64,000 nucleotides of DNA from an uncultured bacterium (GCA_965112635.1 OZ218778.1:1536001-1600000); one strand, 5' to 3'. Positions 34,581 to 64,000 are shown, counted from the first letter of the stretch. A program made the numbers and translations. The notes: a model not told the origin generated them from the sequence alone.

Positions 34581-34591
34581 ATATCCATGCC

Positions 34592-44301: not shown

Positions 44302-44401
44302 TGGCGTATCAAAAAGCTGTTTCGATACGCCATTTTTTGGAGTGGAACTCTTGATTAATTGTTTAGGATTTGGCGAGTCGAAAGGCTGTTTCGACACGCC
44401 A
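44302..44401. repeat. Two 31-bp palindromic repeats separated by 38 bp
   Basis: TGGCGTATCAAAAAGCTGTTTCGATACGCCA (44302-44332) and TGGCGAGTCGAAAGGCTGTTTCGACACGCCA (44371-44401), 26/31 identical. Confidence 0.85.
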
Positions 44402-44591
44402 ACTTTAGAAAGGAAACGCATTATTTAATAGAGCTAAAGTTGGCGTCCCAAGTCATAGCCAATTGGAATCAAATTACAGAATTTCTTCAGCAAATTAACT
44501 CCCTCCGAAAGGAGGGCCTCACTTTATAACCTAAATTCCCCCAAGATTTACAGCGTTATTGCTAATTCTATCCATCACGAAAGGAAAAAAT

Positions 44592-46082: not shown

Positions 46083-46326
46083 ATATCCACTGGTTCATGG
46101 ATTACGATCCGAAGCGGACGATTGGCTTACCGTGCTCCGTTATGCATTCATTTTATTAGAGTACTCGATTAGGAGTGAATTAAAGCCTATTGATATTGAT
46201 GAGATGAAATTGAAAAGATTAGATGATCAACTTAAAGTTGAAAAAATTGAATCGAAAACCATCGAATTAGTTCTAGTGGAAATAAGAAATGCCGTGGCAG
46301 AAATAAAAAATAATAAAGGAGAATAA
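46021..46326 (+). CDS. Short ORF, possibly the frameshifted C-terminus of the upstream gene
   Basis: Overlaps the upstream ORF by 62 nt in the +1 frame; no clear SD; ends 2 nt before the recombinase start and contains its SD. Confidence 0.45.
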   Translation: MLQLAFGVICKSHYVFHCTCRYPLVHGLRSEADDWLTVLRYAFILLEYSIRSELKPIDIDEMKLKRLDDQLKVEKIESKTIELVLVEIRNAVAEIKNNKGE

Positions 46327-46328
46327 TT

Positions 46329-47807: not shown

Positions 47808-49369
47808 TTGATGACTTCAAGGATAATGATGTCGCAGTTTTGATGCGCCAAAGCACCAATAAGAAAAGTCAAGATAATAGTATTCCGAAGCAACTGCAAC
47901 TAAATGCCGAGTTTGCAAAGGAAATCAATTGGCCGTTTCCAACAATGCCAGAGAGATTTTACTCGGCAACTGTAAGCGGCATGTCTCCAAATCGGCCCGA
48001 ATTGGACCGCTTACTCAAGGATATTAGGTCAGGTGACGTAAAGAGAGTGATGGTATATGACTGGTCGAGAGCTTCGCGCAGTATATTAGGGGCCTGTGGC
48101 CTCTGGAATACTATTAGAAAAGCTGGAGCCTTATTAGCTATACAGTCTCAAAAACGAGTCATTGATTCCAAAAAACTTAACGAAGGCGATTTTTTATTCA
48201 TAAGTGTAAATGGTGTAATTAACGAAGCGCAGTGGTTAACGCACGCCCGTCTTGTAAGGGATGGGATGAGGCGCAGAGCGGGTAATGGTAAGTGGCCCGC
48301 TCCCGTTCCGTTTGGTTTTATTCGAAATGAAGATGGTATTTTGATACCTAATCCTGATGAGATGAGGATTGTTGAGCGTCAGTTTGAAGCTGCAGCCGTA
48401 TATGGAATAAGAGAGGCGTGTAAGGTCCTCCAAGAAGAAAATATATTTGTCAGTCCCAGTACGCTTCATTATAGGCTTCATAACTCAGTCTATATTGGAA
48501 TTCTTTCTTATGGAAAGACAAAGAATGACTTTAAGTTAAATCCGAACGCAAAATGGGGAGAGATGCCTGGACGCAAAAGAATGCGTTCTGATGAATTAAT
48601 TGTTGTTGAAGATGCTTTTATATCACCAGTATCAAAAGAGGCTATAGAGAAGTTCCAAGTTAATGCCCAGAGTAGACGATGGAATAAGAGTGGTTTGGGA
48701 CAACGGAAAGGAAAAACTCCATTTTTACTTGCTGGACTGGCCTACTGTGGTTTATGTGGCAAACGTATGTCCAGAAAAGCTGTTAAGGGTGTTAGTAAGG
48801 GTGGTTTAGAGAAAGCCTATGATTATGTAGGTTGTGGAACAGAGAAATGCCCAAATAAATGTCTTAAAAAAGAAATTATTGAAGATCAGATAAGGAAATT
48901 CTCTTTGTGGGAGCACCTTCCGAAATTTGAGCTGCGAGAAGCTATTAAGACGGCGCTAGATATAAAAATACAGTTTGCATTGAAGAAACAAGCAGAATAC
49001 GAAAACGAGATCATTAAATTAACAAATGCCAAAGATAAATTTGGTTCAATGTATTCTGAGGAGATTGCGAAAGACAAAGATTACGCTCAAGCCTATCAGA
49101 AATTGTGCTTCGACTTGCATGAAACCCAAGTAAACCTTTATAGAATGGAGAGAACGGTGAATGAGATAAGCGGTGCGACTCCTAGAATCCAAGCAGATAT
49201 TTTAGGTTGGTGCATAAATTTCAGGGAACGATGGTATTCAATGATACCAAGGCAAAAAATGCTCTTTTTACGTAGAACCTTTTGTAAGGTCAGAGTTTTC
49301 GAGAATTACTTGCTAAGTTTTGAGCCTTGGTCAATGGGTCGTTTTGATTTTGAGAAATCCAATAGTTAA
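47804..49369 (+). CDS. Large serine recombinase 2
   Basis: 'VLMRQST', 'VSG...RPELDRLL', 'WSRASR', 'PFGF', 'LHNSVYIG', Zn ribbon 'CGLCG...CGTEKC'; ATGA overlap with recombinase 1. Confidence 0.9.
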   Translation: MIDDFKDNDVAVLMRQSTNKKSQDNSIPKQLQLNAEFAKEINWPFPTMPERFYSATVSGMSPNRPELDRLLKDIRSGDVKRVMVYDWSRASRSILGACGLWNTIRKAGALLAIQSQKRVIDSKKLNEGDFLFISVNGVINEAQWLTHARLVRDGMRRRAGNGKWPAPVPFGFIRNEDGILIPNPDEMRIVERQFEAAAVYGIREACKVLQEENIFVSPSTLHYRLHNSVYIGILSYGKTKNDFKLNPNAKWGEMPGRKRMRSDELIVVEDAFISPVSKEAIEKFQVNAQSRRWNKSGLGQRKGKTPFLLAGLAYCGLCGKRMSRKAVKGVSKGGLEKAYDYVGCGTEKCPNKCLKKEIIEDQIRKFSLWEHLPKFELREAIKTALDIKIQFALKKQAEYENEIIKLTNAKDKFGSMYSEEIAKDKDYAQAYQKLCFDLHETQVNLYRMERTVNEISGATPRIQADILGWCINFRERWYSMIPRQKMLFLRRTFCKVRVFENYLLSFEPWSMGRFDFEKSNS

Positions 49370-49542
49370 GTTAGTACTGCCCTAACCACCTACCAAACCC
49401 ACCTTTTTTATTCAATCTGTCCAGCCTGGATCTCCATACCGGACACTTTTACAAAAAAACAATTTACTCATTGAGAAATATAGGTTTTGGGACAACTACC
49501 TCCTATTTGGGCTCTATATATTAAATATAAGGAGGAATAAGC

Positions 49543-49791
49543 ATGAAACCAATGAGCCCCTATGGAGGATTGTCTCAATACTTTTGGGACACCTATATAG
49601 ACCTTTGTTTACAGCAATGGTTCGAGCAGAAGGGAGGGGAATATGCCCCAATCCCCTTCCCTAGTGCAAATCCAATTACCTATTCCCCTAAATCCACTTC
49701 CGCTCCAGCAAAAAAACAAAACCAGCCGGATTCCTTTGTCGATCCCCTACGCCGTCCTGAACGAGGCGGATCGTTTGATGAAGTGCTATAG
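49543..49791 (+). CDS. Small hypothetical protein (overlaps the next ORF)
   Basis: Strong SD AAGGAGG 6 nt upstream; 149-nt overlap with 49643-50368. Confidence 0.4.
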   Translation: MKPMSPYGGLSQYFWDTYIDLCLQQWFEQKGGEYAPIPFPSANPITYSPKSTSAPAKKQNQPDSFVDPLRRPERGGSFDEVL

Positions 49792-50368
49792 GCTTCGGGG
49801 AAGCGAACAGGACTTGGTGATGCTTTGGGAGGTTATGGAGCCTTCTGTAAAGATTCTAGCCTGGCAGCAGTGGGATCGTTACCAATACCGAGTAGGGACG
49901 GTCATTGAATCCGGCGATCTGGTATCGCTGGCAAAATGCGTGTTTTTCAGCCGTCTCCTCAAAGGATGGGATAGTAAAAAAGGCCACTTTCTCAGATATG
50001 CCTGTGTCACTTTCTATTTTGAGTTCAAAAAGTATCTCAGGCAATACAACAGGACGGGCTGGAATTTTGAGTCCCTGGAAAGCGCATATGAGGGCAGTAG
50101 ACCAAAAGAGCCTGTTGCCCCCACGAATCCTGATCTTTGTGACCTGCAATTAGAAATGTCCCTTCAAAATCTGGCTAAACGCCGACCCTTACTGGCAAGA
50201 GCAGCATTTTCCTACCTTAAAGGCGATAAGGGGTCATTGAGGGATGCGGTGATATCAGAACAGAAAATTAGAGGGTTTTCCAGAAGCTCACTTCACAGGG
50301 TTATTAAGGATATCCGGCAAAATCTGATTAAGGAAGAAAATGAAAAAGTGAGAGAGGAGGTGATGTAA
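49643..50368 (+). CDS. Sigma70 region 2-like / HTH DNA-binding protein
   Basis: 'GDLVSLA...LKGWDSKKGHFLRYA' resembles sigma region 2 ('FDP.KG..F.TYA'); C-terminal HTH-like 'GFSRSSLHRVIKDIR'. Confidence 0.55.
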   Translation: MPQSPSLVQIQLPIPLNPLPLQQKNKTSRIPLSIPYAVLNEADRLMKCYRLRGSEQDLVMLWEVMEPSVKILAWQQWDRYQYRVGTVIESGDLVSLAKCVFFSRLLKGWDSKKGHFLRYACVTFYFEFKKYLRQYNRTGWNFESLESAYEGSRPKEPVAPTNPDLCDLQLEMSLQNLAKRRPLLARAAFSYLKGDKGSLRDAVISEQKIRGFSRSSLHRVIKDIRQNLIKEENEKVREEVM

Positions 50369-50719
50369 ATGCAGTCTATTCGGGGACCAGTACACCAAGG
50401 GCCTTACGTGCATAAATCCATAGGGGTTTACTTGCACGCAAAAATAAAGATGATCCGGGTGCATTTCTCCTATGAAGACGTTCAGTATTTTGATCGTTTG
50501 GTGGAGATGGCGAGGGGTGAAGGGCAAAATAAAAGTAAACTTTTGAGGTCTATTTTGATGGAGGTATTAAATGTCAGTCTGGTTGAGTTGGGTGCAGCAT
50601 TAAAAGCTAAAGCAGGTCATTTTCGTTCAGTTGGTGGCTATGCGAGGAACATTCTGATTGATTATCTGGAAAAAGGTAAAGATAAGACGGATTCAGAGTC
50701 ATTAACAAAAACCAATTAA
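50369..50719 (+). CDS. Hypothetical, ribbon-helix-helix-like DNA-binding protein
   Basis: SD GGAGGTG; 'IRVHFSYEDVQYFDRLVEMA...NKSKLLRSIL'. Confidence 0.5.
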   Translation: MQSIRGPVHQGPYVHKSIGVYLHAKIKMIRVHFSYEDVQYFDRLVEMARGEGQNKSKLLRSILMEVLNVSLVELGAALKAKAGHFRSVGGYARNILIDYLEKGKDKTDSESLTKTN

Positions 50720-50732
50720 AAAGGGGGTTGTT

Positions 50733-51461
50733 ATGGGATTTAGCATAAGTAATATAATTTTAAAGTCTGGAAATAGGTTTGATGAAACGGCTTCGGCTTT
50801 GCAGAAATCAATAAGGCGGGGGAAGGAATACGAATCCATGTTTCACTTCGTGGATTTGGCGGAAAGCGGTTTTGATCTCTACGCCTGGAAGAGGCTCTGT
50901 ATCTGCGCTGCGGAAGATATAGGGCTTGCCAACCCGAATATAGTGGTTCAGGTCAACGCTCTTGCGCAGATGTGGGAGAGAATGCGGAAAAAGGAAAAAG
51001 ATGACAGTTCAGGAGAGTTAATCTTTCTCCTCCCCGAAAAAAACATCCCAGCTCTTGCAATACTTTTGATGTGTCGCTCTCCTAAGAACAGAGAAGCCGA
51101 CGATTTGGCTTCGTGTGTGGATTTGGACTGGAAGGAAGGGAAGATCATTCCAATCTCGCCGGAGGCCATTGATGGTCATACGCAAACAGGTAAGGCAAAA
51201 TTAAGACAGCAGGCCAAAGAACAGGGCCGGGAATTTATTGATTTATTTCGTCATGAATTTTTCGAGGGATCGGCACGAAATAATTTGCCGGTGGAAGTTG
51301 ATCTTGGTCCAATAGGGATAAATTGGATGAGGGAAATTACGGAATCACGGTTAGGGTGTGACTATGCTTTATATACAAAACCAATCTCATTAGAAGAAGC
51401 CAGCCCTAAGAAGAAGGGTGAAGATGGAATTAAAACTGAAATAGCTGTTGAGGAAGCTTGA
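50733..51461 (+). CDS. Stand-alone MgsA/RarA C-terminal-like protein (no ATPase domain)
   Basis: 'SALQKSIRRG', 'WKRLCICAAEDIGLANP', 'MCRSPKNR'; no Walker A. Confidence 0.7.
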   Translation: MGFSISNIILKSGNRFDETASALQKSIRRGKEYESMFHFVDLAESGFDLYAWKRLCICAAEDIGLANPNIVVQVNALAQMWERMRKKEKDDSSGELIFLLPEKNIPALAILLMCRSPKNREADDLASCVDLDWKEGKIIPISPEAIDGHTQTGKAKLRQQAKEQGREFIDLFRHEFFEGSARNNLPVEVDLGPIGINWMREITESRLGCDYALYTKPISLEEASPKKKGEDGIKTEIAVEEA

Positions 51462-51514
51462 AGCTTACCTGTCCCTGACGAAATTTGAGGGGTTACGCCT
51501 AAAGGGGGTTTTTA

Positions 51515-51805
51515 ATGAAAAAACCAGAACCAGAAAATATGAAAATGATTCAAGCGGAAACAGATAGTGGCTTCAAAGAGATAATGAATTCGTTGTCTAC
51601 GATTGTAAGCTGTATGAAAGAAATCCACGATGATGAAATCTTACGGCAGGTTGAAATTCTGGATGCGTATAAAGTTGCTTCTGATGCGATCTTGAGAGTA
51701 GAGAAAAAATTAAACGCTATGAAACTTATATTAAACAAAAAAGGGGAATTGGTACAGGCTGTTACTGCTACCGGATTGAGTAAGGTAAAAGCGAGCCTGA
51801 ACTAG
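51515..51805 (+). CDS. Hypothetical helical protein
   Basis: SD AAGGGGG; 96-aa ORF co-oriented with the island. Confidence 0.55.
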   Translation: MKKPEPENMKMIQAETDSGFKEIMNSLSTIVSCMKEIHDDEILRQVEILDAYKVASDAILRVEKKLNAMKLILNKKGELVQAVTATGLSKVKASLN

Positions 51806-51954
51806 AAAGTCAGCGCAGAAAAAGCTTTGATATCAGAACTTTGGGCATATTAAGGAATAGCTTATTGTTCCGATTCTTTTACCAGTTTTTATGATTAATT
51901 GTGTTAAAAGTTCATTAATAAAGCTAGATTTAGGCAAGAAATCAAGACGCTATC

Positions 51955-51983
51955 TTGACACACATAGTTGTTTGTGGTATAAA
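51955..51983 (+). promoter_or_regulatory. Near-consensus sigma70 promoter of the defence operon
   Basis: TTGACA-17 nt-TATAAA with extended -10 TGn; 39 nt upstream of ATG 52023 (SD AAGGGAGG). Confidence 0.75.
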
Positions 51984-52022
51984 TAACACCGATGGCAGAC
52001 ATACATATTTAAGGGAGGCACG

Positions 52023-54653
52023 ATGAGTCTTGCAGATTTCTTAACCCCGAGGAAAGAGGTTCTTCGTAAAGAAGGTATAGAAAGCGTTATTGATATTGAG
52101 AATCTGAATGATCAAAAGAAAATATCCATCGAATCCCGTCCTGAAGATTTTTTTGATTTAACCTGGCCTACCAGTGATATCAAATTAGTGATAGAACACC
52201 TGAATAATCGGTTTAATTCAAAAGAAAAGACCTCTGGTTTATTTCTTTTAGAGGGTTTTAAGGGTAGTGGTAAATCCCACATTGAATTATTGGTCTATCA
52301 TCTTTTCAAAAATAACGCTGCCTCCAGACCTTGGCTGGCAAAACATAATCTAGAGTGCAACCTACCTGCTGACGCTATAGTGAGTATTCATAAGTTCACG
52401 GATTTTCCTTTGGATTCGATCTGGTCAATTGTTTTTGAAAGTCTAGGAGCGAGTAAGCAGGTTTCTGCCTCTAAGGTTCCTAATCTTAAGGAACTGCAAG
52501 CGGCATTAAAAGGTAAAAAACTTGTCTTAATACTTGATGAGCTTGAGAGAGGTATCCTAAGTATTCCAGACGAAAACAGAAGAGAGCAAAATCTTGGATT
52601 TTTACAGATGCTCTCAGAGGAATCACTTCGCAGTCATGATGCATCAATTACCATAATTGCTTCTGTTTACGATTCAAATAAGGAACCGGGTTCCACTTTA
52701 AAGCGTATTTCCAGACTTGATGTAAAGTTCGCAGAACCAACCGATAGACAAAAGATCGTCTTCCATAGATTGTTTTCTAATTTCCAATCGCTTGAACAGA
52801 ATAAGGTGACATCAATAATTCAGAGCTATGCTAATCAGTGGAAAAAAGAGAATGTTAATGTGAATGAGAAATATTTGGATAAGTTTAGGAATGCTTTTCC
52901 CTTTACACCTGAATTATTGGATATGCTTTTAGAAAAAGTTTTAAAACAAAATTTTCAAGGTAATCGTGGGCCGTTGGGTCTACTCGGAAATATGGTTCGC
53001 AATATGTATCAAAAAGTTGATGTAATTTCTGCAGCCCATTTGGATATTGATGATAATGGTATAAGAAACAGGCTGACCGACCTTGATCCAGGTCAGGGCT
53101 TGATTCAGTGCGCTCAGAACGACCTGAAGGGTCTCAGGGAATTAAAGTATTCATCGGAGATCGTAGCTAGTGTGTTGATAGGAACGCTGGCCAGCTCTGG
53201 AAATCTTAAGGGTATTCATGGAGATGATCTGGCAAAGCAAGTGCTTAGGCCAGGTGATGATATTAATGTTTACAACGCTACTTTACAGGCATTTCAGAAG
53301 ATGGGCGCCTATTTTCAGAGCTCAGAAGGGAACTACTTCTTTGATGTCCAAGAAAAACCCAGCGCTAAGATCGAATATCATTCCCTGCGAATCGATCCCA
53401 AAGAAGCCTTGGATTTCGCTCTAGATCGATGGAAAAAGTATGTTTTTAGCGATCCCCAAGCGGTTGTATTTAGAGATGTTGCTCAGGCAAAAGCTGAACT
53501 ATCAGTCCGGGAGAAGAATGGACTTAAGTATATTTTGGCTCCAAGAAGATTAAAGCCAGAAGAAAGAACTCAGCTTTATCACGGATTGGAAAACCGTAAC
53601 CAGGTCATACTTCTCGAACCTAAATCTGATAATTTCGATGCTCTTAATAATCCCGATATTATTAAATGGTCAAAAAGGGCTAAGGCCTCTATGGAATTGC
53701 AACAATCGGCATCGGATTCTGAACGCAAGCACAAGTATGAGCAAATTGGGCAAGAAGATATTCGTTATGTTGAGGAAGCTTTTAAAAAGGCGGGCTTGTG
53801 CTATGTGTTGGTAAATCCGGGTCAGGATATAAATTCTAGTCTGGAGTTTCAACTCGAGAGAGTAGGCAATGCTACTAATAAGGAACAGGTCAGGAGGGAG
53901 CTTTCAGAAAATATATTTCCAAGACAAAGGATAGAAGACCACTTAAATGAACTATTAGACAGTGATAAGAACAGAGGACTTGTTATCGAAAGAAGTATCA
54001 GTGAGATCAGGTCAGAATATCGTAAAACTTTAGGATTTCCCGTTTTAATGACTGATATGACCATATTGATCGACGCCTTAAAGAGCCTCTCGATACAAAA
54101 GCGCATCGGTTTAAAAAACAATCGCACAAGACATTGTGGAACGACACCTCAGTTTTCCGGTGCTGAATGGGATTCTGTAGTGGTAGTTGAACCCTTTGAA
54201 GATGATAAAAAAGAAGGATTTAATTTCAACCCTCAAGTGCCGGTTAAACCTGGAGAAATAAAAGGTGGGGATGAGACTCCTCAGGCTGAACCAATATCAG
54301 CTCCAAGTTCTCAAATTGAATCCACTACGGTTTATACAACAAACCACTCTACCTTGGGCTCTTTAAGACAGGAAATCGCTGCAAAATTGGATGGGTATGA
54401 CAAGATGACAATAACTACCTGTCGATTTGTTCTATTTCTACAAAATAGCAATGCTGATTTAGGTTCATTGCCAGTCGCTCTGCGTGGGACATTAAGCGGG
54501 ATGGCTGATTTGAGCATGGAACTGGATATCGTTAAGCAAGGAGAGTTCAGCAAGGCTCAGGTAGAACAGATGGCGGAACAGCTACCCAGTTTCCAAGGGG
54601 CTGGATATAAAGCTGAATTAAAATTGATAATTAACGAAGGAAAAAATGGATAA
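52023..54653 (+). CDS. DUF499-like (BrxC-related) AAA+ ATPase
   Basis: 'TPRKEVL' start, 'PEDFFDLTWPT', Walker A 'GFKGSGKSH', Walker B 'VLILDEL', 'FPFTPEL', 'FQGNRG.LGLL'. Confidence 0.8.
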   Translation: MSLADFLTPRKEVLRKEGIESVIDIENLNDQKKISIESRPEDFFDLTWPTSDIKLVIEHLNNRFNSKEKTSGLFLLEGFKGSGKSHIELLVYHLFKNNAASRPWLAKHNLECNLPADAIVSIHKFTDFPLDSIWSIVFESLGASKQVSASKVPNLKELQAALKGKKLVLILDELERGILSIPDENRREQNLGFLQMLSEESLRSHDASITIIASVYDSNKEPGSTLKRISRLDVKFAEPTDRQKIVFHRLFSNFQSLEQNKVTSIIQSYANQWKKENVNVNEKYLDKFRNAFPFTPELLDMLLEKVLKQNFQGNRGPLGLLGNMVRNMYQKVDVISAAHLDIDDNGIRNRLTDLDPGQGLIQCAQNDLKGLRELKYSSEIVASVLIGTLASSGNLKGIHGDDLAKQVLRPGDDINVYNATLQAFQKMGAYFQSSEGNYFFDVQEKPSAKIEYHSLRIDPKEALDFALDRWKKYVFSDPQAVVFRDVAQAKAELSVREKNGLKYILAPRRLKPEERTQLYHGLENRNQVILLEPKSDNFDALNNPDIIKWSKRAKASMELQQSASDSERKHKYEQIGQEDIRYVEEAFKKAGLCYVLVNPGQDINSSLEFQLERVGNATNKEQVRRELSENIFPRQRIEDHLNELLDSDKNRGLVIERSISEIRSEYRKTLGFPVLMTDMTILIDALKSLSIQKRIGLKNNRTRHCGTTPQFSGAEWDSVVVVEPFEDDKKEGFNFNPQVPVKPGEIKGGDETPQAEPISAPSSQIESTTVYTTNHSTLGSLRQEIAAKLDGYDKMTITTCRFVLFLQNSNADLGSLPVALRGTLSGMADLSMELDIVKQGEFSKAQVEQMAEQLPSFQGAGYKAELKLIINEGKNG

Positions 54654-55629
54654 ATTTTATCAGTCTATATTTCAGCAAATTATCAGGTCTGGCGCACGGC
54701 TTTCTCATGTTGAGAAATTGCTGATGAAAGAGGTATGGTCTGATAAGAGATTCTCTGAAATGGACACTGAAAAGTATTTAGTGGAGGGAGAAAAAATGAT
54801 GAATAAAGCGGAAGAGATCATTCTTAATTCCGCTTGGAGTTTATATGATGAATTGGCAGCACAATCAGAGAACAGGGGATCGCTTTTAAACACTTTTGAA
54901 CCAGATCATCCAAAAGCTTTAGTGGTTTTGGATGGAGCTTCTATTAGAGAGCTTCCCTTGCTGAAAAGTCTTGCCCAAAAGACAGGTTTTGAGGTAGTGG
55001 ATTCTAGCTATGGTTATGCAGGACTTCCTAGTGAAACAAATGCTTTTGTTGAGCAAAGATTGGTCGGTAAACCGATCTCTCCCTCGCAGTTAGACTCACG
55101 GAAAGAATTAAAAAGTAAAAACATATCCACCTATTACTATGATACTCCGATCAGAAGTTTTGAGTTGCCTAAGGTGAGCAACTCTTTATTGCTATGGTCT
55201 GCCTTTCCAGATGGGACATATACTGATTTCGAGGCGCGGTCATCGGCGCATTTTGAGTCTTTGGTAAAACAGTTTGATGTTGTATGGAAAAATATCATCC
55301 TGGCTATCCCTTCGGGGCATGAAATTGTCATAACTAGTGATCACGGATATATTTACTTTGGCGTAGACATGGAATCTTCGAGTCGATTCGGGTCGGATGC
55401 TCTTGCTTATTTAAACCAAGACCGCTTCCGTATTTTAACTGAGGGAGAGAACCTTCCTTCTGATAATTCTGATTTGATGTGTTTAAACAATCGCAGGGCA
55501 GTGATGCTAAAAGGTAGGATCAAAAATCACCCGCAGGGTAAGTCCAGCAATAAGATATTCCGTCACGGAGGCATGTCTTTGATGGAGATGCTAACGCCGT
55601 GGCTTGTCATTAAGAAGAAAAAATCATAA
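54646..55629 (+). CDS. Stand-alone PglZ-domain (alkaline-phosphatase-fold) protein
   Basis: 'VVLDGAS', 'LPSET', 'ITSDHGY', 'HGGMSLMEMLTPW' are the PglZ metal-binding motifs; 8-nt overlap with the ATPase. Confidence 0.82.
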   Translation: MDKFYQSIFQQIIRSGARLSHVEKLLMKEVWSDKRFSEMDTEKYLVEGEKMMNKAEEIILNSAWSLYDELAAQSENRGSLLNTFEPDHPKALVVLDGASIRELPLLKSLAQKTGFEVVDSSYGYAGLPSETNAFVEQRLVGKPISPSQLDSRKELKSKNISTYYYDTPIRSFELPKVSNSLLLWSAFPDGTYTDFEARSSAHFESLVKQFDVVWKNIILAIPSGHEIVITSDHGYIYFGVDMESSSRFGSDALAYLNQDRFRILTEGENLPSDNSDLMCLNNRRAVMLKGRIKNHPQGKSSNKIFRHGGMSLMEMLTPWLVIKKKKS

Positions 55630-55641
55630 AAGGGGGTAAAT

Positions 55642-55908
55642 ATGACTAATAAGACTAAAGAGCATGTGAAGGAGAAGATCGGCACAGCACTGGACAAGGA
55701 CGTTGTTAAGATGCTCAAAGAGCGTTCTCATTCGGAGGGTCGTCCCATCAGTGACATTTTGCAGGATGCCATCTTGAGGTATAGCACGGCTGAGTCGGGT
55801 TCAGATGACCAGCGCTTGGCTGCGGTTAAACGCCTCTGCTCACGCCCTTTCAATCTTACCAGGCAGGAACTAGATGAAATAATGGAGGAGGACTACTTCG
55901 AGCAATGA
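55642..55908 (+). CDS. Ribbon-helix-helix antitoxin (VapB-like)
   Basis: 'KIGTALDKDVVKMLKERS..EGRPISDILQDAI..Y'; acidic tail; ATGA overlap with the PIN gene. Confidence 0.75.
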   Translation: MTNKTKEHVKEKIGTALDKDVVKMLKERSHSEGRPISDILQDAILRYSTAESGSDDQRLAAVKRLCSRPFNLTRQELDEIMEEDYFEQ

Positions 55909-56405
55909 ACATACTAAAGATTCCTCAAAGAGAAGCTTTTCTGTTAGATGCTAATGTGATCCTTTATGCTATTGAGCGTTCTTCCAATCAATGCGAACGT
56001 TTGATGGAGCGTTGCGCTAGAAGGGAAGTATCTGGCATTCTTTCTACGCATATTTTGGCCGAGGTTATGCATCGGCTTATGGTTGCCGAGGCCAAGGATG
56101 CAGGATGGCTAACGGGTTCTAATCCTGCTCGTCAACTTGCCTCACAGCCCAACCGTATTAAGACACTTAATAGGTATGAAGAGACGGTCCGTGACCTTTT
56201 AACTGTTGGCCTAGTATTGGAATCGCCGATCCGTGAGGATTTCATTACAGCTATGGAGTTACAGCGAAGGTTTGGCTTGATGACCAATGATGCATTATTG
56301 CTGGCATTAGGCACTCGTTTGCGGATAACTTCTATTGCTTCAGCTGACCAAATATTTAAAGAAATTCCAGGGTTTTTATACTATGCCCCGGATGACTTGG
56401 AGTAA
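55905..56405 (+). CDS. PIN-domain ribonuclease toxin (VapC-like)
   Basis: Acidic tetrad 'LLDANV', 'LAEV', 'TNDALL', 'SADQIF'. Confidence 0.85.
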   Translation: MNILKIPQREAFLLDANVILYAIERSSNQCERLMERCARREVSGILSTHILAEVMHRLMVAEAKDAGWLTGSNPARQLASQPNRIKTLNRYEETVRDLLTVGLVLESPIREDFITAMELQRRFGLMTNDALLLALGTRLRITSIASADQIFKEIPGFLYYAPDDLE

Positions 56406-56410
56406 AAGAG

Positions 56411-59400
56411 ATGCCTGTAAAAAGAGCTATCGAGGAATATTTTCCCATCGTCGAAGTGAACCGTCTGGCTGTGCCGGAGCGTAATGCATTTAAACCAATT
56501 TATACAATGCATAAATGGTTTGCCAGACGCTCATCCTCGGTATTCAGGGCGATCTTGTTAGGAGCAATGAAACCGGCTGGTACGGATATCATGAAAGAGT
56601 TTTATAGAGATCATACCGATGATCCTGATACTAAAGGGAAAACAGTTCTTGATCCTTTTATGGGTGGTGGCACGACGGTAGTAGAGGCTTTGCGTCTAGG
56701 ATGCAAAGTGACTGGGATAGATTTAAATCCAGTGGCTTGGTTTATCGTCAAGACTGAGGTAGAGCCGGTTGATTTGGATGAGCTCAAGGCAGCTTTTGAG
56801 CGGTTGGCAGAGAGAAAAGTAGGGTGGTCAGCCAAGCCTTTAAAAGAAACCTTATTGAGTTTATATAAAACAGAGTGTCCGGCGTGTGGTAATAAAGATG
56901 CGGATATCATATATACTTTTTGGGTCAAGTCCGCTCCTTGTACGACGGCTACCTGTAACCATCAGACGCCCCTTTTCTCAGATTTTGTGATTTCCCAGAA
57001 AAGCCCGTCCATCAGATATTTGCCAGACTGTGTTTGTCCCAAATGTAAAAAGAAGTTCGATTGGGAGATCGAGCCTGCGGCCATGGTTGGAGATCCGAGA
57101 CTAATGGTCAATGCCGCAAAATTTTCAGCCGGGGAGGGCAGGAGTTCTGCCCGTTGGAGCTATTCTGATGGTTCTACGGTTGCCTGCCCCTGGTGTAAAG
57201 ATAAAGTAGCCCCTCAGGTATCAAGTCCAAAAACCCAGAAAAAAAAGGTGCCACTTTCCGTTAATTATTGCCCGGCTTGCGAGGAGGTTTGGCAGTTCAG
57301 GGGTGAGCTAGAGGAAAAAATATCCTGCCCATCATGTAAAAATGAATACAATCCAAAAGAAGGCAATTTGCCTGAAAGCGGCAAGTTTATCTGCAGGGGT
57401 AATTGTAATGGTAATGTGGACGCCGTTATCAGTGCAATCCGTAAACTCCCAGAAACAGAACGACTTCCTGTTAAACCGTATGCCCTTGAAGGATATTGCA
57501 GTCATTGTGACCGGGAGGAAAAAGGCGATGATAGCCAAGCGGGTCTTTTTGACAAGAATTCTAAGGCCTCGAATAAGGGCGTAAGGAATGAGATAAGTAC
57601 AATGCTTAGAAAGAACAGCGGTAAATTTATTAAAAGAATTAGTTCTGGCGATTTTTCACTTTTTAAAAAGGCTTCAGAGATTTGGGAAAGGGAAAATGAT
57701 AAATTACTTTACCCAAAGTCAGAAATACCGGAAGGTGCTGAGACGCATAGATTATTGGAGCATCATTATTTGTATTGGCATCAAATGTTTAATAATAGGC
57801 AATTGTTGGCGCTTAGTAGTTTAATAAAGGGTATTGATAAAGAAGAGAGCCAGACAATGAAAGAAATGCTGCTCAGTGCTTTTTTTAATACCCTAAATAA
57901 CATGAGTGATTTTACTTCCTATAGGCCCACTGTTGGAGCGGCCAGACAGGTATTTGCCAGGCATGATTTTCAACCCAAAATGACACCATGTGAAGTTAAC
58001 CCATGGGGAATACATGTTGGAATGGGTTCTTTCCAATCTATGTTTGATTCTGTTTTTGAAGGTAAAAAGTTTAATAAAAATGTTTATGACAGAAAGATTG
58101 TTTTTGGGAGTAATAAAGCTGATGGCTTCGAAATTAAGAAAGTTGCCAGTGGTGAAAAAGTACTAGGTACAAAAGAGGCGGTGACACTTTACTGTAATTC
58201 TTCAACTAATCTAGGAAAATTGGCTTTATTGGATATTGTTATTAGCGACCCCCCCTATTCAGGCAATGTGAACTATTCTGAGTTAGCGGATTATTTTTAT
58301 GTTTGGTTGAGGCTGATACTAAAAAATAAATATCCACACTTTAGTGCTGAACAAACCCCAAAGGTTGAAGAAGTTGTAGAAAATAGGGCCAGGCAAAAAA
58401 CAGCTAAAGATTTTGAGGCTGGCCTAATGAAGGTTTTTGAAGAGTGTAACCGTATTTCTAAGGATGATAGCTTGTTGATCTTTACTTTTCACCACGCAGA
58501 GGGTTCGGCTTGGGAGGCATTGTTAAACGCCGTTTGCGAGGCTGGTTATTGCATTGAGGCAGTTTATCCTATACATGGTGAAGCCGAATCTTCTTTGCAT
58601 TTACAGGAGAATGAGGCTATTTCTTATGATCTGATACATGTATGCCGGAAAAGGCAGAAAAATGAAAATGCTACAAAGAAAGCATGGGCAACTATAAGGC
58701 AGGAAATTCGTAAGCGTGCTAATGATGAGGCTCGGTTAATAGAGACAGGAAGATATGGTAATGAGCCATTGAGTCCTGCGGATATAAACATTTTACTCAT
58801 CGGCAAGTGCCTAGAAATGTACAGCAAGCATTATGGCACAATCATTGATCATTTGGACCAGCCTGTACCGCTCAAACGGGCTTTAGAGGAGATTAAGCTT
58901 CTTATTGACCAGCTTGTCACCAAAGAACAACCTCTCCCATCCGAATTAGAGGATATTGATGCTCCCTCCTACATATACCTGACTACTTTATGCGATAGAA
59001 AAGAAATAACTGGTGATGAGATTAGCAAAAATACCAAAGGAATCATTGAAACATCAGACTTAAAAGATTACGGCCTCATTATCAAGGGTAGGGAAAAGCG
59101 TGGTAGGACCTTTGAGGTGAAACAGCCTATTGAAAGGCTTAACGAGCTGAAGGAAAAATTTAACAAAGTGGTTTTTGTAAGCCAGCCGACTTTGGAGGGT
59201 ATAGAGGTAGCCAAGGAGGTCAAAGAAGATTTTAGATTTGTGGATTATTTGCATTTGCTTCTAGGATTGGCAGATGCTGGGGATAATCTCTTGCCATACT
59301 TGGAGAAATTCAGAGGGCTAAGGCCACAAATCCGTGCCTCCATGGAGTACCTATCGAAAAAGAATAAAAATTTTGCTGCCCCTGCCGGTAAGGTGCTGGC

Positions 59401-59443
59401 TTTACTTGACGAGAGAACTCTTTTTACAAAAAAGGAGAAATAA
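56411..59443 (+). CDS. DUF1156-type DNA adenine methyltransferase with a multi-Zn-ribbon insert
   Basis: 'MHKWFARR', motif I 'LDPFMGGGTT', motif IV 'SDPPY..NVNYSELADYFYVW', 'FTFHH...AWEALL'; about eight Cys-pair motifs. Confidence 0.88.
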   Translation: MPVKRAIEEYFPIVEVNRLAVPERNAFKPIYTMHKWFARRSSSVFRAILLGAMKPAGTDIMKEFYRDHTDDPDTKGKTVLDPFMGGGTTVVEALRLGCKVTGIDLNPVAWFIVKTEVEPVDLDELKAAFERLAERKVGWSAKPLKETLLSLYKTECPACGNKDADIIYTFWVKSAPCTTATCNHQTPLFSDFVISQKSPSIRYLPDCVCPKCKKKFDWEIEPAAMVGDPRLMVNAAKFSAGEGRSSARWSYSDGSTVACPWCKDKVAPQVSSPKTQKKKVPLSVNYCPACEEVWQFRGELEEKISCPSCKNEYNPKEGNLPESGKFICRGNCNGNVDAVISAIRKLPETERLPVKPYALEGYCSHCDREEKGDDSQAGLFDKNSKASNKGVRNEISTMLRKNSGKFIKRISSGDFSLFKKASEIWERENDKLLYPKSEIPEGAETHRLLEHHYLYWHQMFNNRQLLALSSLIKGIDKEESQTMKEMLLSAFFNTLNNMSDFTSYRPTVGAARQVFARHDFQPKMTPCEVNPWGIHVGMGSFQSMFDSVFEGKKFNKNVYDRKIVFGSNKADGFEIKKVASGEKVLGTKEAVTLYCNSSTNLGKLALLDIVISDPPYSGNVNYSELADYFYVWLRLILKNKYPHFSAEQTPKVEEVVENRARQKTAKDFEAGLMKVFEECNRISKDDSLLIFTFHHAEGSAWEALLNAVCEAGYCIEAVYPIHGEAESSLHLQENEAISYDLIHVCRKRQKNENATKKAWATIRQEIRKRANDEARLIETGRYGNEPLSPADINILLIGKCLEMYSKHYGTIIDHLDQPVPLKRALEEIKLLIDQLVTKEQPLPSELEDIDAPSYIYLTTLCDRKEITGDEISKNTKGIIETSDLKDYGLIIKGREKRGRTFEVKQPIERLNELKEKFNKVVFVSQPTLEGIEVAKEVKEDFRFVDYLHLLLGLADAGDNLLPYLEKFRGLRPQIRASMEYLSKKNKNFAAPAGKVLALLDERTLFTKKEK

Positions 59444-59884
59444 ATGCCTGGATATTTACTATTAAATCAAAAAAGTCTAACACCGCCTTTATCTGCTGGG
59501 AGAGGTGTCCAGGCAAACACTCGTAAGATTGGCTTCCTGGATTTTATTCGTGAATTAGATGATGAAACCTTTCCTTACGATGAGAATACTAGCCTGATGG
59601 TAATGGGTCTCGAAGATGTTTTATTGGCAGCCAGGCCTGATATGGATACCGCTGCAAAGGATATCTCGAGAAAGTTGCAACATGCAGCTGGGAAGTTGAT
59701 TAGCCGGGCATGTGCAGATATACAAATTGTTTTTAGGGGAAATCTCAAGCGGGGAGAAAACCTCATTGTGGAAAATGTTACGGCAAACCTGCCCATTTAT
59801 CTCATTTTTGGCTCTCCTGCGGATATGGAAATAAACGGCCAGAAGGTATTTAAGCGGGATTTTAACCTAAGTAGTCCAACATGA
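59444..59884 (+). CDS. Hypothetical protein in the defence operon
   Basis: Start immediately follows the MTase stop (TAAATG); SD AAGGAG; alpha/beta pattern. Confidence 0.75.
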   Translation: MPGYLLLNQKSLTPPLSAGRGVQANTRKIGFLDFIRELDDETFPYDENTSLMVMGLEDVLLAARPDMDTAAKDISRKLQHAAGKLISRACADIQIVFRGNLKRGENLIVENVTANLPIYLIFGSPADMEINGQKVFKRDFNLSSPT

Positions 59885-59900
59885 TAGAGAGGATTTGATT

Positions 59901-62741
59901 ATGGAAGAAAACCTAAAAAGTGTTCCCAGAACAGGTGATTTCGTAAAGATCAAAGGAAGAGATGATCTCGGTGTTGTGGAAATATACCGGGTCAGTGATG
60001 TCTTTGGGTCATATCAGGCAGAAGTCGTCTATGAGGACACAACAGGCAGGCATTTGCAGAGCTTTCCTATTGAGAGGCTTGAGCCTGCTCCAGACCTTTG
60101 GGAAAGAATAAGGCGAAATGATATTGATGCCCCGGTAGATTTTCTTTTAAAACAACTGTCATTTCAAATCCCGCTCCAAAATACAGGAGGTCAGCTTTCT
60201 AATAGTCGTACTGATTTGCTACCGCACCAGATACTGATCACCAGGGATGTGGTGTCAGCCAAAAGGCGTAGGTTTCTGATCGCTGATGAGGTGGGCCTTG
60301 GTAAAACTATTGAAGCAGGAATGATCCTTAGAGAATTGATCAGCAGAAACGAAGCAAAAAGAATACTGGTGATAGCTCCTGCTGGGCTAATAAAAAATTG
60401 GCAGCAAGAGTTAAGGGATGCTTTTAGGCTTAATTTTGAGGTGCTGGGCGTGGACTTTGTTGATCACGGTGTTACTTCATGGGAAACGCACAATCAGGTG
60501 ATCGCTTCGGTAGATACAGTCGAAAAGACCCAGCGATTGGAGAGGTTGCTGGGTGGGCCACGCTGGGATGTCATTATCTTTGATGAGGCTCATCACTTGA
60601 GCAGATTAAAGTATGGGAAAAAAATTCAGTCAACACTGAATTACAAGTTGGCAGAGGCAATAAAAGGACATACCCGTGATCTGCTGTTCCTTTCAGCTAC
60701 CCCTCATCAGGGCAATACTTTCCAGTTCTGGTCGCTTATCCAGCTATTAGACGATTCCCTTTTTGAGGATGAAGATTCATTACGAGAGCACAAAGGATTT
60801 CTTAATCAGGTAATGATCCGAAGGACAAAACGGGAGGTTACGGATAAAAACGGCGATCCAATATTTATGCGAAGGCAAGTGCATACTCAATCCTTCCAGT
60901 TAGCCATCAGGGAGAAAAACTTCTATGAAAGCCTGACGGAGTATCTAAAAGAAGGCTATACCGCAGCGGGTTTGGGTGAGAAAAAAACAACCTCTGAGCA
61001 GAGGGCCATCGGGTTTGTTATGACGACTTTTCAAAAGATTATGTCTTCTAGTATGAGAGCTATCAGGCAGGCCCTAAGACGCCGATTGCTTGTGTTGCTT
61101 ATCCGTCAACAGATGGATTTAGAAAACCGGCGTAGACATCAAGCGAGTCACTCAAGGATTGCAGAGGAAATAATTAAAATCCAGGACGAGATGAGACAGT
61201 TGGCAACCCTACTTTCAAATATTCCCAACAGCGGGTCTCGACAAGCTGATTTGGATGCTTACATAGCCCAGATGAAGCAGAAGGTCAGCAGAAAATATAT
61301 GCAGCAAAATGACGAGGAGACTGAATGGTCCTTGGATGCTGATGAAGGCGGAGAAGAAGGAATTTATACTGATGCCAGCATCCCTGATGAGATTTCAAAG
61401 GTAAAAGAGCTATTAAGGATCGTGCCTGAGGGTGTTGATAGAAAATTTGATACTTTAACAAGGGCTGTTGATTCGATTAGGAAAGATAATCCAGGAGAAA
61501 AGTTTGTTATTTTTACGCAGTATGTTGAAACATTGCTCTTTTTACAGGAAAAGCTCGGTTCTATTTATGGCGAGGGCAAGGTCGTCGTTATAAGAGGCGG
61601 TCCTCTTGATGACAAAATCGAAGCCAAGGATAAATTTTGGGAGGAAAATGGGGCTCAGTTCCTTCTTTGCACCTCAGCAGGAGGAGAGGGGATAAATCTG
61701 CAAGTTGGTCATATTCTATTTAACTATGACCTTCCCTGGAATCCAATGGCAGTGGAGCAGAGAATAGGTCGCATTCACCGCTATGGACAGAAGGATACGG
61801 CACAGGTTTATAACCTGGTTGCTGAAGATACAGTAGAGAAAAACATTTATGACATATTGAATACAAAATTGATGGATATTGCTACGGAAATTGGAAAAGT
61901 GGACTCAGAAACACACCAGCCATTAGAGGATTTTCGTTCAGAAATACTTGGATTTCTTGGTTCATCCCCAAATTATCTTGAATTGTACAAGAGAGCCCTG
62001 GTGGATAAGGATTATTTGAGAACAGAAAAAGAAATTACTGAGGCTATGCAAAATGCTTTGCAGGCCAGTGAGGCGCTTAAAAGTCTGACGATGGATTTAA
62101 AAACTTTTAATCTTCAGGAGTATCTGGATATAGAAGGAAAGTTTTCTCTTGGAGATTTAAAGACTTTTACGCAAACAGCTATCTTGAGATTAGGTGGGTC
62201 AATCCTTCCCAAGGGTGAATTTTTGTCTATTGTCACGCCAAAACCCTTGTTGAAATACACCAATGTTTTGCCTAAGTATGAGTTGGTTTCTTTTGATAGG
62301 GAAGCTGCCATGCGTAAGAGGTCGGCAGAACTCTTCGGATTAGGGCATCCACTTATAGACGCTTTGATCGATTATATGCAGCAAATTACCACGCTAGGCG
62401 ATGTCACATCAATGAACTCAACCGATAATGCAGATACCTATGCGATCGTGAATACGTTATTAACTGTTGATTTGGAGGGCGGTAAACAGCATAGAGAATT
62501 CAAAATAATTCGTACTACATCAAGTGGTGATGCACAAGTTTTGACTGATGATTGGCTACTGAAAAGATTATCTATGGACATTACCCAAAGAAACGCCAAG
62601 GGATCAAAAATGAACTGGATTGAAATAAAGCAATCCTACGAAGGCGCCATAGGTGTCATTTTAACCCAAATCAAATCGAGTTTGGAAAGGCCCATAGGAG
62701 CCAGGGTAAGGCTTTTAGGGGTAGCAGAGGTTATTAATTAG
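59901..62741 (+). CDS. SNF2/RapA-type SF2 helicase
   Basis: 'ADEVGLGKT', 'DEAH', 'LSATPHQG', 'FTQY', 'GGEGINLQ', 'YDLPWNP..VEQRIGRIHRYGQ'. Confidence 0.93.
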   Translation: MEENLKSVPRTGDFVKIKGRDDLGVVEIYRVSDVFGSYQAEVVYEDTTGRHLQSFPIERLEPAPDLWERIRRNDIDAPVDFLLKQLSFQIPLQNTGGQLSNSRTDLLPHQILITRDVVSAKRRRFLIADEVGLGKTIEAGMILRELISRNEAKRILVIAPAGLIKNWQQELRDAFRLNFEVLGVDFVDHGVTSWETHNQVIASVDTVEKTQRLERLLGGPRWDVIIFDEAHHLSRLKYGKKIQSTLNYKLAEAIKGHTRDLLFLSATPHQGNTFQFWSLIQLLDDSLFEDEDSLREHKGFLNQVMIRRTKREVTDKNGDPIFMRRQVHTQSFQLAIREKNFYESLTEYLKEGYTAAGLGEKKTTSEQRAIGFVMTTFQKIMSSSMRAIRQALRRRLLVLLIRQQMDLENRRRHQASHSRIAEEIIKIQDEMRQLATLLSNIPNSGSRQADLDAYIAQMKQKVSRKYMQQNDEETEWSLDADEGGEEGIYTDASIPDEISKVKELLRIVPEGVDRKFDTLTRAVDSIRKDNPGEKFVIFTQYVETLLFLQEKLGSIYGEGKVVVIRGGPLDDKIEAKDKFWEENGAQFLLCTSAGGEGINLQVGHILFNYDLPWNPMAVEQRIGRIHRYGQKDTAQVYNLVAEDTVEKNIYDILNTKLMDIATEIGKVDSETHQPLEDFRSEILGFLGSSPNYLELYKRALVDKDYLRTEKEITEAMQNALQASEALKSLTMDLKTFNLQEYLDIEGKFSLGDLKTFTQTAILRLGGSILPKGEFLSIVTPKPLLKYTNVLPKYELVSFDREAAMRKRSAELFGLGHPLIDALIDYMQQITTLGDVTSMNSTDNADTYAIVNTLLTVDLEGGKQHREFKIIRTTSSGDAQVLTDDWLLKRLSMDITQRNAKGSKMNWIEIKQSYEGAIGVILTQIKSSLERPIGARVRLLGVAEVIN

Positions 62742-62764
62742 TGCAGTTCAGTAGAGGTAAATAA

Positions 62765-64000
62765 ATGAAGAATTTTGATGATCCAATAATAGTTCAATTA
62801 ATTCAAAAATTAATTGATTCGCAATACTATAAGTTGGAAGAGGAGTATTTTAAAAAATTCCAAAAGCATCAGGCCGAAATGTCGTTAAGGGGAGTACAAA
62901 GATCGGGATCTAATATTCAGGGGGTAATAAAAATAATAAAAGAGGAGCTGGATTTAAGGGCCGAATTTATATTCAATAATTTGAAGAAGATATTTAATAT
63001 TGTTCGAATTCCAGATAGAGGAAATTTATTGGTAGAAATGAAACAATATTTTATGGAAAAAATGAAGTTTGAAGAGGCCCAATTTCTTAAAAGAGTAAAA
63101 GAGGTTTCTATTAATGCTGGATTAAAACATGGTAATTCAGATATTGAGATAACGCGGCAAGTGGATATGTTAATAAACAAGTATCATGGTGAGATTGAAT
63201 TATTTTTAATCGAGTTAGCCAATAAGAATAAAAATGTAAATAATTCAGATAGTAGAAGTATTGTAGGAGATGCAACAATGGTGTTGCTTTATTTAGCCAA
63301 TTATGAAAAAGAACCCGGGGATATTCAAAAAGGGCATTATCAATTTGAAGCATCCGAGCTTGCCGAGGGGATTTCAATTGAACCTAACCGATTAAATGAT
63401 GCTGTTGATTTATTAGAAGAAAATAATTATGCAGAAGTTACAAGAACTATAGGCACAGCACCTTTTATGTTTCATTGGATAACTTTAACAACAAGAGGCA
63501 GAATTGAAGCAGAGAGATTGTCAAATATAAAGAAGACAGATATTCAGAAGCAGGATCAAAATCCACAGTTAGTGGAACCCATTATTTCCCGTTCTCCAAC
63601 ACCTGTTGGTTCTCCCTATGGTTTTACATTGCAAGATTGGGAATCAGTAAGTATTGACAGAGAAGACGCGACACGACTTATTGTTGTTTTTGGCCATCAA
63701 TGGGAATCTAAACACTTTAAATCAGAAACAATAAGAGAAAATATAAAAAATATGTTTGAAAGTTCACTGAAAGCTGTGGAAAAAAAGTTAGTGGGCGGAA
63801 CCGTAAGGCTTGATTATCGTCCTCTTCGTGGGGGATATGGTGGGCACCTTTTTAATCAAATTGCGCGCGATATTATTGGTGCAGATATAGCAGTCTTTGA
63901 AACAAGTGATCATAATCCAAATGTAATGATTGAGCTTGGTGTTGCGCTTACATGGGGAATCAGGGTTCTACCAATTAAAAATAAAAATGCTCAAACAGTG
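62765..64000 (+). CDS. 3'-truncated protein: helical N-terminus, winged-helix-like middle, nucleoside-deoxyribosyltransferase/TIR-like C-terminal domain
   Basis: Manual translation open to the window end (absent from the ORF track); SD GAGGT; 'ASELAEGISIEPNRLNDAVDLLEENNY...ITLTTRG'; 'IIGADIAVFETSDHNPNVMIELGVALTWG'. Confidence 0.75.
   Translation, partial: MKNFDDPIIVQLIQKLIDSQYYKLEEEYFKKFQKHQAEMSLRGVQRSGSNIQGVIKIIKEELDLRAEFIFNNLKKIFNIVRIPDRGNLLVEMKQYFMEKMKFEEAQFLKRVKEVSINAGLKHGNSDIEITRQVDMLINKYHGEIELFLIELANKNKNVNNSDSRSIVGDATMVLLYLANYEKEPGDIQKGHYQFEASELAEGISIEPNRLNDAVDLLEENNYAEVTRTIGTAPFMFHWITLTTRGRIEAERLSNIKKTDIQKQDQNPQLVEPIISRSPTPVGSPYGFTLQDWESVSIDREDATRLIVVFGHQWESKHFKSETIRENIKNMFESSLKAVEKKLVGGTVRLDYRPLRGGYGGHLFNQIARDIIGADIAVFETSDHNPNVMIELGVALTWGIRVLPIKNKNAQTV

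Follow-up and report, generated by a model that had tools for sequence, protein, structure and literature searches.

Gene content of the operon

We have analyzed a stretch of 64,000 nucleotides from an uncultured bacterium (GCA_965112635.1, OZ218778.1:1536001-1600000), referred to here as the window, at the right end of which a first-pass annotation had singled out a candidate anti-phage operon related to BREX. Eight open reading frames (ORFs), designated here g1 to g8 and all located on the plus strand, fill the region from 52023 to 64000 with spacings of -8, 12, -4, 5, 0, 10 and 23 nt, which confirms the eight co-oriented and tightly packed genes of that annotation. Its domain calls (DUF499/AAA+, PglZ, PIN, DUF1156 with an N6_N4 methylase, and SNF2) agree with Pfam, PADLOC and NCBIfam. 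The absences that it listed, namely brxA, brxL, a canonical pglX, DUF3780 and PLD, are also borne out, and in these three collections none of the eight window proteins gave a match to BrxA, BrxL, BrxC or a type-1 PglX, or to a DUF3780 or PLD domain. Judged by sequence, the catalytic motifs are all intact.

The first gene, g1 (52023-54653), codes for a DUF499-type AAA+ ATPase of 876 aa that scores 23.2 bits with Pfam DUF499, the cut-off being 23, and also matches AAA_22 and, among the PADLOC models, HmaC (6.1e-17), with no match to a BrxC model. The Walker A motif is GFKGSGKS at residues 78-85 and the Walker B motif LVLILDE at 167-173, and K84, D172 and E173 are invariant among 21 relatives. 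The next gene, g2 (54646-55629), codes for a standalone minimal PglZ of 327 aa with an alkaline-phosphatase fold. It is matched by PADLOC PglZ models down to 4.6e-8, the profiles concerned being 750-860 positions long, and by BREX_PglZ_4 of NCBIfam (4.2e-8, under the cut-off). The family to which it belongs gave 410 matches; among the matches listed the proteins have 268-360 aa, mostly around 320-327, and many carry PF08665. An alignment of 34 sequences has invariant residues that include D96, S99, S129, T131, D232, H233 and H307. In the AlphaFold model (predicted local distance difference test, pLDDT, 92.5) the protein consists of a phosphodiesterase domain and an N-terminal helical region of ca. 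85 aa. Searches of the PDB by sequence gave no match, and Foldseek placed this model closest to PorX (1.6e-11), followed by the BREX PglZ 9zn5_B (7.8e-8, 879 residues) and then by NPP/autotaxin phosphodiesterases. No relative of this PglZ was found in the phage genomes searched. The public gene call for g2 is a protein of 277 aa (P0005, 85% of the query); the start at 54646 that gives 327 aa is the better call because W31, G48 and E49, upstream of the shorter start, are invariant.

The two other large genes are g5 and g7. The former (56411-59443) codes for a predicted DUF1156-type N6-adenine DNA methyltransferase of 1010 aa, with matches to Pfam DUF1156 (30.3 bits, cut-off 24) and N6_N4_Mtase (1.4e-11) and to HmaB (5.3e-42), DUF1156_MTase (8.8e-31) and PglXI (3.7e-28) of PADLOC. 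Motif I is DPFMGGG (81-87) and motif IV DPPY (613-616), and there is a cysteine-rich insert with six CxxC between residues 156 and 366. The latter (59895-62741) codes for a SNF2-family helicase/translocase of 948 aa devoid of a nuclease domain, in which Pfam finds SNF2-rel_dom, Helicase_C and ResIII only. Its motifs are GLGKT (134-138), DEAH (230-233), SATP (267-270) and QRIGRIHRYGQ (622-632). The best PADLOC models are BrxHI|BrxHII (3.8e-104) and HmaA (1.3e-103), and the HmaA model covers residues 19-660 with positions 13-640 out of its 1176. In NCBIfam the matches are to DrmD (9.3e-101, under the cut-off) and to a PLD anti-phage model that aligns with the helicase part only (481-669). The longest ORF of g7 starts with a TTG at 59895, and an ATG is found at codon 3 (59901).

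Three smaller genes complete the set. Between g2 and g5 lie g3 (55642-55908), coding for a ribbon-helix-helix (RHH, Arc/CopG-like) antitoxin-like protein of 88 aa, and g4 (55905-56405), coding for a predicted PIN-domain nuclease of 166 aa. The assignment of g3 comes from a PHROG Arc-like repressor (4.9e-6), Pfam RHH_1 reaching only 0.053; the RHH occupies the N-terminal part of the protein and the C-terminal tail is acidic, and K10, K12, G14, T15 and A43 are kept in 43 out of 43 relatives. The Pfam PIN match of g4 (6e-11) spans residues 13-155, i.e., 143 residues for 117 profile positions, and the acids D15, E53, D129 and D148 are kept in 48, 46, 47 and 45 of 49 relatives, respectively. Finally, g6 (59444-59884), located between methyltransferase and helicase, codes for a protein of 146 aa of no named family, with no match in Pfam, PADLOC or NCBIfam. 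Its model (pLDDT 92.5) has an alpha/beta fold whose weak fold matches are mostly P-loop proteins (p97, KaiC, RadA/Rad51, CobU, adenylate kinase), and the sequence has no Walker motifs. A search of g6 against the ESM Atlas (recognition 1603, scores below 0.9) was uninformative.

Conservation across related loci

An alignment search with the g2 PglZ provided 153 genome loci, and 80 of them were retrieved together with flanks of at most 10 kb per side. They come from 18 named phyla, and their PglZ is 35-58% identical to that of the window. In all 67 loci with sufficient upstream DNA g1 was found directly upstream of PglZ. Downstream DNA reached 9 kb or more in 49 loci, and of these 46 have g5 and 47 have g7. 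The small g6, which the first-pass annotation had called an orphan, is instead a core gene, since, where a locus holds both g5 and g7, the g6 profile detects it between them in 48 cases out of 49, the exception (L016) being a degraded locus. As the order recurs in related loci, it is far beyond what chance would give. The Mantel correlation with the PglZ distances was 0.96 for g1, 0.83 for g4, 0.83 for g5, 0.85 for g6 and 0.68 for g7 (none of these values was reached in 999 permutations), indicating that the genes travel together, a correlation that shared ancestry alone would also produce. Thus g1, g2, g5, g6 and g7 are a five-gene unit co-inherited across many phyla, and seven of the eight genes of the window (g1 to g7) form a unit. 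Among the 526 remaining ORFs of the loci no other family recurs in more than five.

The family of g6 comprises 118 representative clusters, all of 269 aa or less, and a search for longer fused forms found none. One locus (L035, 12483-14759, a metagenome-assembled genome, MAG) has a methyltransferase that is cut short near residue 867 and continues in frame into residues 11-142 of g6; a natural fusion, a deletion and an artefact of MAG assembly might each explain it.

The RHH-PIN pair has a more restricted distribution. Both genes were present in 42 of 68 loci; the pair was found within 800 nt 3' of PglZ in 41 of the 68, and somewhere in the locus in 44. On a PglZ tree built with the window and 66 loci (14 were omitted, either the PglZ ORF being split or short or the flank being short), its presence (44) or absence (23) is explained by one single change, compared to a mean of 19.3 in shuffles, and none of 500 shuffles was as low. 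In three gammaproteobacterial loci a large insertion parts PglZ from RHH-PIN, and the pair adjoins the methyltransferase. RHH-PIN is therefore a stable extra module that is inherited with the system in one major branch, and it behaves as a component of a subtype and not as randomly inserted cargo, although few changes on a tree are by themselves no proof of a functional tie. Of the two toxic effectors proposed in the first-pass annotation, this one belongs to the unit in that branch; the other, g8, does not (see below).

Inside the operon there are also three recurrent slots (loci L003-L077) at which many loci carry insertions of 0.6-5 kb. One slot separates PglZ or PIN from the methyltransferase, another the methyltransferase from g6, and the third g6 from the helicase. 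From the 108 inserted ORFs we scanned 74, mostly on the plus strand, and found cargo of the Abi, toxin-antitoxin and defence kinds, including AbiEii with DUF6922, HEPN, Schlafen/AlbA_2, DUF3800, Hachiman HamA with its helicase, ABC-3C, OLD-like ATPases, Fic, MazF, RelA/SpoT, ThsB-TIR, PD-(D/E)XK and a NACHT protein. The position 3' of the helicase (36 scanned of the 67 ORFs listed) is equally mixed, with Hachiman, TIR_2, DUF4365, Schlafen, SIR2, DUF488 or housekeeping genes.

Plasmids also carry the small PglZ in distantly related form (24-29% identity), on 43 records, 34 of them predicted to be conjugative, with hosts mostly belonging to Klebsiella, Enterobacter, Citrobacter and Raoultella. 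One example of the five-gene core on these plasmids of Enterobacterales is NZ_CP114377.1 (2071-15530), in which the order is helix-turn-helix, DUF499, a 339-aa hypothetical protein, SIR2, an ATP-binding protein, DUF1156, a 166-aa hypothetical protein and SNF2. By phmmer this plasmid matches g1, g2, g5 and g7; the 166-aa protein fails the g6 profile, and SIR2 with the ATPase takes the slot held by RHH-PIN in the window. No relative of the g4 PIN was detected in the plasmids searched. RefSeq names the plasmid genes only as DUF499, hypothetical, DUF1156 and SNF2. A haloarchaeal plasmid carries DUF499, an 'alkaline phosphatase', the methyltransferase and a g6-like protein (1.2e-7), with no helicase nearby.

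Flanking sequences and neighboring genes

The intergenic stretch upstream of g1 has 218 nt and contains a promoter-like site on the plus strand (51955-51983), formed by TTGACA (51955-51960), a spacer of 17 nt ending in TGG, and TATAAA (51978-51983). It agrees with the consensus at 11 of 12 positions and has a TG two bases before the -10 element. A scan by consensus did not list it because the last base of its -10 element is an A, where the rule of the scan demands a T. Inverted repeats near it are limited to short pairs of 9-13 nt of no clear meaning. Four nucleotides 5' of the ATG of g1 there is a Shine-Dalgarno-like AGGGAGG (52012-52018, plus strand), which by its sequence would be a strong ribosome-binding site.

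The operon sits in an AT-rich island, as had been described, downstream of two large serine recombinases (46329-47807 and 47804-49369) recognized by domain and family searches. The guanine-cytosine (GC) content is 0.402 across 44301-64000 and 0.536 across 1-44300, and to the left of ca. 44.3 kb the genes are housekeeping (FtsH, TilS, folate enzymes, complex I, RelA/SpoT, formate-tetrahydrofolate ligase). The low-GC island has probably been horizontally acquired. Its right end lies beyond the window; no tRNA was found at its border, the sole tRNA of the window being at 4214, and Rfam gave no matches in 44000-64000. The ORF at 44559-46082, a candidate third recombinase, was discarded as such because it matches no recombinase in any search. 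ORFs of the island within 44559-46326 and 49643-51805, of 507, 241, 116 and 96 aa, have no family match. For a 242-aa ORF (50733-51461) the only matches are to a phage 'ATPase' PHROG and to MgsA/RarA-type AAA+ ATPases, in the latter case to their C-terminal part. Neither the five ORFs in 49643-51805 nor the three before them have relatives in any of the 80 related loci. There is a second low-GC patch (0.44-0.48) at 32000-35800 of the window, with the complex I operon on one side and the folate genes on the other, that holds an AAA_14/DUF4143 ATPase (34499-35746) and an ORF with no assigned family (33396-34118).

The last gene, g8 (62765-64000, 412 aa in the window), codes for a putative winged helix-turn-helix (wHTH) protein with a C-terminal TIR-like domain, both assigned from weak profile matches. 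Its full length is 456 aa (P0125), the last 44 being located past the end of the window, and the layout is that of a unique N-terminal region of ca. 170 aa followed by the wHTH and the C-terminal domain. The family, which has no name, gave 692 matches of ca. 290 aa covering the latter two domains, and the N-terminal extension left any trace in only one of 27 aligned relatives. CAP12-PCTIR_TIR is matched by 27 out of 28 members, always below threshold (best 0.002), and MarR_2 by nine of the 28. In the PDB the g8 profile gave only weak wHTH matches, and the Atlas gave unnamed clusters (0.89 at most). No relatives of g8 appear in the 80 related loci. It is, therefore, a separate variable neighbor outside the conserved unit, and it fits the pattern of variable neighbors seen after the helicase in other loci. 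The proposal of g8 as the second toxic effector does not hold as part of the system, and its TIR call is sub-threshold.

Proposed mechanism and alternative readings

We consider it likely that the region 52023-62741 is an intact, DUF499-centred BREX-related (BR) defence system of the kind published as 'Type-3 BR', located on a horizontally acquired low-GC island, with a mechanism that can be proposed by homology. By analogy to MANTIS and to type I BREX, g1 would load the methyltransferase g5 onto DNA motifs that are short and asymmetric, and the host DNA would be marked by g5 through N6-adenine methylation. When the incoming DNA is unmodified, the same recognition complex would engage the translocase g7 together with the PglZ g2, which would act as a metal-dependent phosphodiesterase or nuclease, and g6 might play the role of BrxB by bridging PglZ to the ATPase g1. 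RHH-PIN could be a VapBC-like backup toxin or an addiction module. That the PglZ supplies the nuclease, as the first-pass annotation had also proposed, is an inference found in print in the text available of both PMC12839542 and PMC13326643.

A number of observations weigh against this identification or parts of it. The window proteins are remote from the curated models: g1 is far below the cut-off of its NCBIfam model (DUF499_antiphage, 7e-16, 57 vs. 1200 bits), g5 is also below that of its own (DUF1156_antiphage, 1.1e-38, 133 vs. 1000 bits), and g2 itself reaches only 13.5 bits with Pfam PglZ (cut-off 25). For g6, Foldseek found no significant match in the PDB (best E 0.26), PADLOC run on 31 family members found no BrxB or BrxF (one HamA match at 0.043), the profile compared with the PDB scored only on multi-copy RecA chains, by adding up weak matches none of which passes singly, and hhalign with the AAA+ domain of g1 gave a probability of 0.7%. 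The single near-consensus sigma70 promoter of the first-pass annotation is visible in the sequence and remains unproven, with no statistical support, since promoter-like sites are not enriched in 49000-64000 (29 vs. 32.8 +/- 6.6 in shuffles). Besides, no experimental studies of Type-3 BR were found in the literature searched.

The weight of the alternatives falls mostly on the activity of PglZ. The operon might belong to the same family with a PglZ that is not a DNA nuclease; it would be a phosphodiesterase or phosphatase acting on a nucleotide or protein substrate, or a structural regulator, and restriction would be non-degradative (e.g., a replication block by the ATPase/helicase complex) or would be carried out by PIN in the RHH-PIN branch. 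The fold search speaks for such a role, as g2 is closer to PorX, a signalling phosphodiesterase (the pGpG complex being among its best matches), than to the BREX PglZ, and so does a report that BREX does not degrade phage DNA wholesale (PMC13326643, in the part available), together with a PIN that has intact catalytic residues and is co-inherited in 44 of the 67 sampled loci. However, the 23 other loci keep PglZ without PIN, and, according to Pfam, PADLOC and NCBIfam, no gene of the operon would make a signalling nucleotide. In the published classification PglZ takes the role of the restriction endonuclease and PLD nucleases of Type-1 and Type-2 BR (PMC12839542, text available), and nuclease activity has been reported for the PglZ of type I BREX (as cited in the accessible text of PMC13326643 and PMC12839542). 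We hold a PglZ devoid of nuclease function to be unlikely. Tentative, and less likely than not, is the reading that RHH-PIN is no incidental toxin-antitoxin cargo and makes up integral sixth and seventh components that define a major subtype of minimal-PglZ systems, with PIN as a regulated effector acting alongside PglZ or instead of it. A single gain or loss of the pair would then have been followed by its retention at one fixed position and by co-evolution with PglZ (in Verrucomicrobiota, Ignavibacteriota, Nitrospirota, Pseudomonadota and others), and the slot would be a general docking site for second effectors, because SIR2 with an ATPase sits there on the Klebsiella plasmids.

Two other explanations question the class of the system itself. 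A divergent canonical BREX of type 3, instead of a BR system, would be in keeping with the top position of BrxHI|BrxHII for g7, with the match of PglXI to g5 and with the PglZ models that match g2. Yet g1 matches DUF499 and HmaC and no BrxC model, g5 has the DUF1156 N-terminus that the text of PMC12839542 available gives as a BR-specific feature of the methyltransferase, there is no BrxA-like gene nor any further conserved family in the 80 loci, and g2, with 327 aa and no fused domains, is far from the 750-860 positions of the PADLOC profiles and from the 879 residues of 9zn5_B, all of which makes this reading very improbable. The chance gathering of a Hma-like trio, a stray phosphatase and a toxin-antitoxin pair has in its favor that defence islands collect unrelated systems and that other loci do carry unrelated cargo inside or beside the operon. 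But an order g1-g2-(g3-g4)-g5-g6-g7 kept across 18 named phyla, with correlated distance matrices, in loci that are not near-identical copies of one mobile element, as the identity values of PglZ indicate, leaves hardly any credit to mere juxtaposition. Under the preferred reading of a Type-3 BR system, the methylation-type system with a DUF499/DUF1156/SNF2 core and a minimal PglZ that the first-pass annotation described does hold; it is not the one-off hybrid that was supposed (153 genome loci here; 569 taxa in the text available of PMC12839542).

Comparison with known systems

How BREX-type systems stop phages is unsettled, and the role of PglZ is central to this question. The canonical BREX types 1 and 3 share with the window PglZ, an AAA+ ATPase (BrxC-like), an adenine methyltransferase of non-palindromic sites and, in type 3, a BrxHII-like helicase. 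They differ in having a BrxC/DUF6079 ATPase, BrxA, PglX or PglXI, and a multi-domain PglZ of ca. 750-880 aa, against the 327 aa of g2. In type I BREX a BrxB:PglZ:BrxC core complex has been described in which BrxB bridges residues 1-98 of PglZ to the AAA+ domain of BrxC (PMC13326643, in the part available).

The DUF499-centred 'BREX-Related' systems have been split into three types (Rakesh and Krishnan, NAR 2026, PMC12839542), which we compare here from the text available of that paper. Type 1 is Hma, with a helicase that has a C-terminal PD-(D/E)XK nuclease. It provides the best PADLOC models for g1 (HmaC) and g5 (HmaB) and nearly so for g7 (HmaA), but Hma is a three-gene locus with a nuclease-fused helicase and no PglZ, whereas g7 has no nuclease domain and further conserved genes are found in the window locus. 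The second type, Gao_RL or now MANTIS, has DUF3780 and a PLD-helicase, and among the BR types a mechanism has been worked out for this one alone: in the available text of the preprint (bioRxiv 10.64898/2026.09.23.753747), the methyltransferase is loaded by the DUF499 ATPase and hemimethylates asymmetric 6-bp sites, and restriction requires both ATPases. The DUF499 ATPase (MtsA), the DUF1156 methyltransferase (MtsC) and a SNF2-type motor are homologous. The difference is in MtsB (DUF3780 in PMC12839542, DUF3870 in the preprint) and in the PLD (HKD) nuclease located N-terminally on the helicase, in place of which the window has PglZ and g6. By its sequence, then, the operon is not a canonical BREX, Hma or MANTIS.

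The two accessory elements also have known counterparts. Like the VapBC type II toxin-antitoxin systems, g3-g4 has an RHH protein encoded upstream of a PIN with four conserved acids and a 4-nt overlap between both genes, features that would qualify the pair as VapBC-like. However, it is inherited as a unit with a defence operon, rather than scattered. In the case of g8, the C-terminal motif region of the family gives weak but consistent matches to the TIR effector of CAP12/Pycsar. They stay below the Pfam cut-off, and g8 has in addition a wHTH and its unique N-terminal region.

The closest resemblance is to Type 3, defined in the text available of PMC12839542 by a DUF499 ATPase, a methyltransferase, a helicase that is nuclease-less, a PglZ that is standalone and active (in all 569 taxa) and iSTAND (82%); among the literature found, this paper is the only one that uses the wording 'standalone PglZ'. 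It further describes a BrxHII-like helicase with inactive REase and Tudor domains, a methyltransferase whose target recognition domain has two 4-Cys Zn fingers in some cases, and an inactive-STAND protein, BrxB-like, in which the Walker motifs are eroded. The window coincides in four features (DUF499 ATPase, DUF1156 methyltransferase, nuclease-free SNF2 helicase and standalone PglZ), and it resembles Type 3 as well in the Zn-finger-rich target recognition domain nested in the methyltransferase, the intact metal site of PglZ and the small extra protein. The first-pass annotation had allowed that the layout might be already catalogued, and indeed the operon has been catalogued computationally and is widespread, not a unique hybrid, besides being intact and well conserved. 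The small protein is found in 48 of 49 loci here vs. 82% for iSTAND in the paper, the identity of the two being unconfirmed; g6 is probably the BrxB-like iSTAND of the Type-3 literature, with which our data are compatible without establishing it. With a PglZ of 327 aa, a partner of 146 aa and no helicase nuclease, the operon offers a stripped-down model in which the functions of PglZ, the BrxB-like protein, the ATPase and the methyltransferase can be separated by genetic and biochemical means.

The main departure from the published type is RHH-PIN. According to the text of PMC12839542 available, Type-3 neighborhoods 'lack conserved standalone nucleases', with PIN 'less commonly observed'; here the pair occupies a fixed slot in 44 of the 67 loci sampled, which either refines or contradicts this description. 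The RHH-PIN module and the recurrent cargo slots suggest how such systems may recruit second-line effectors. Compared to the main text of that paper, what is new here is an RHH-PIN module extending over a whole clade and the existence of copies of the system on Klebsiella-type plasmids.

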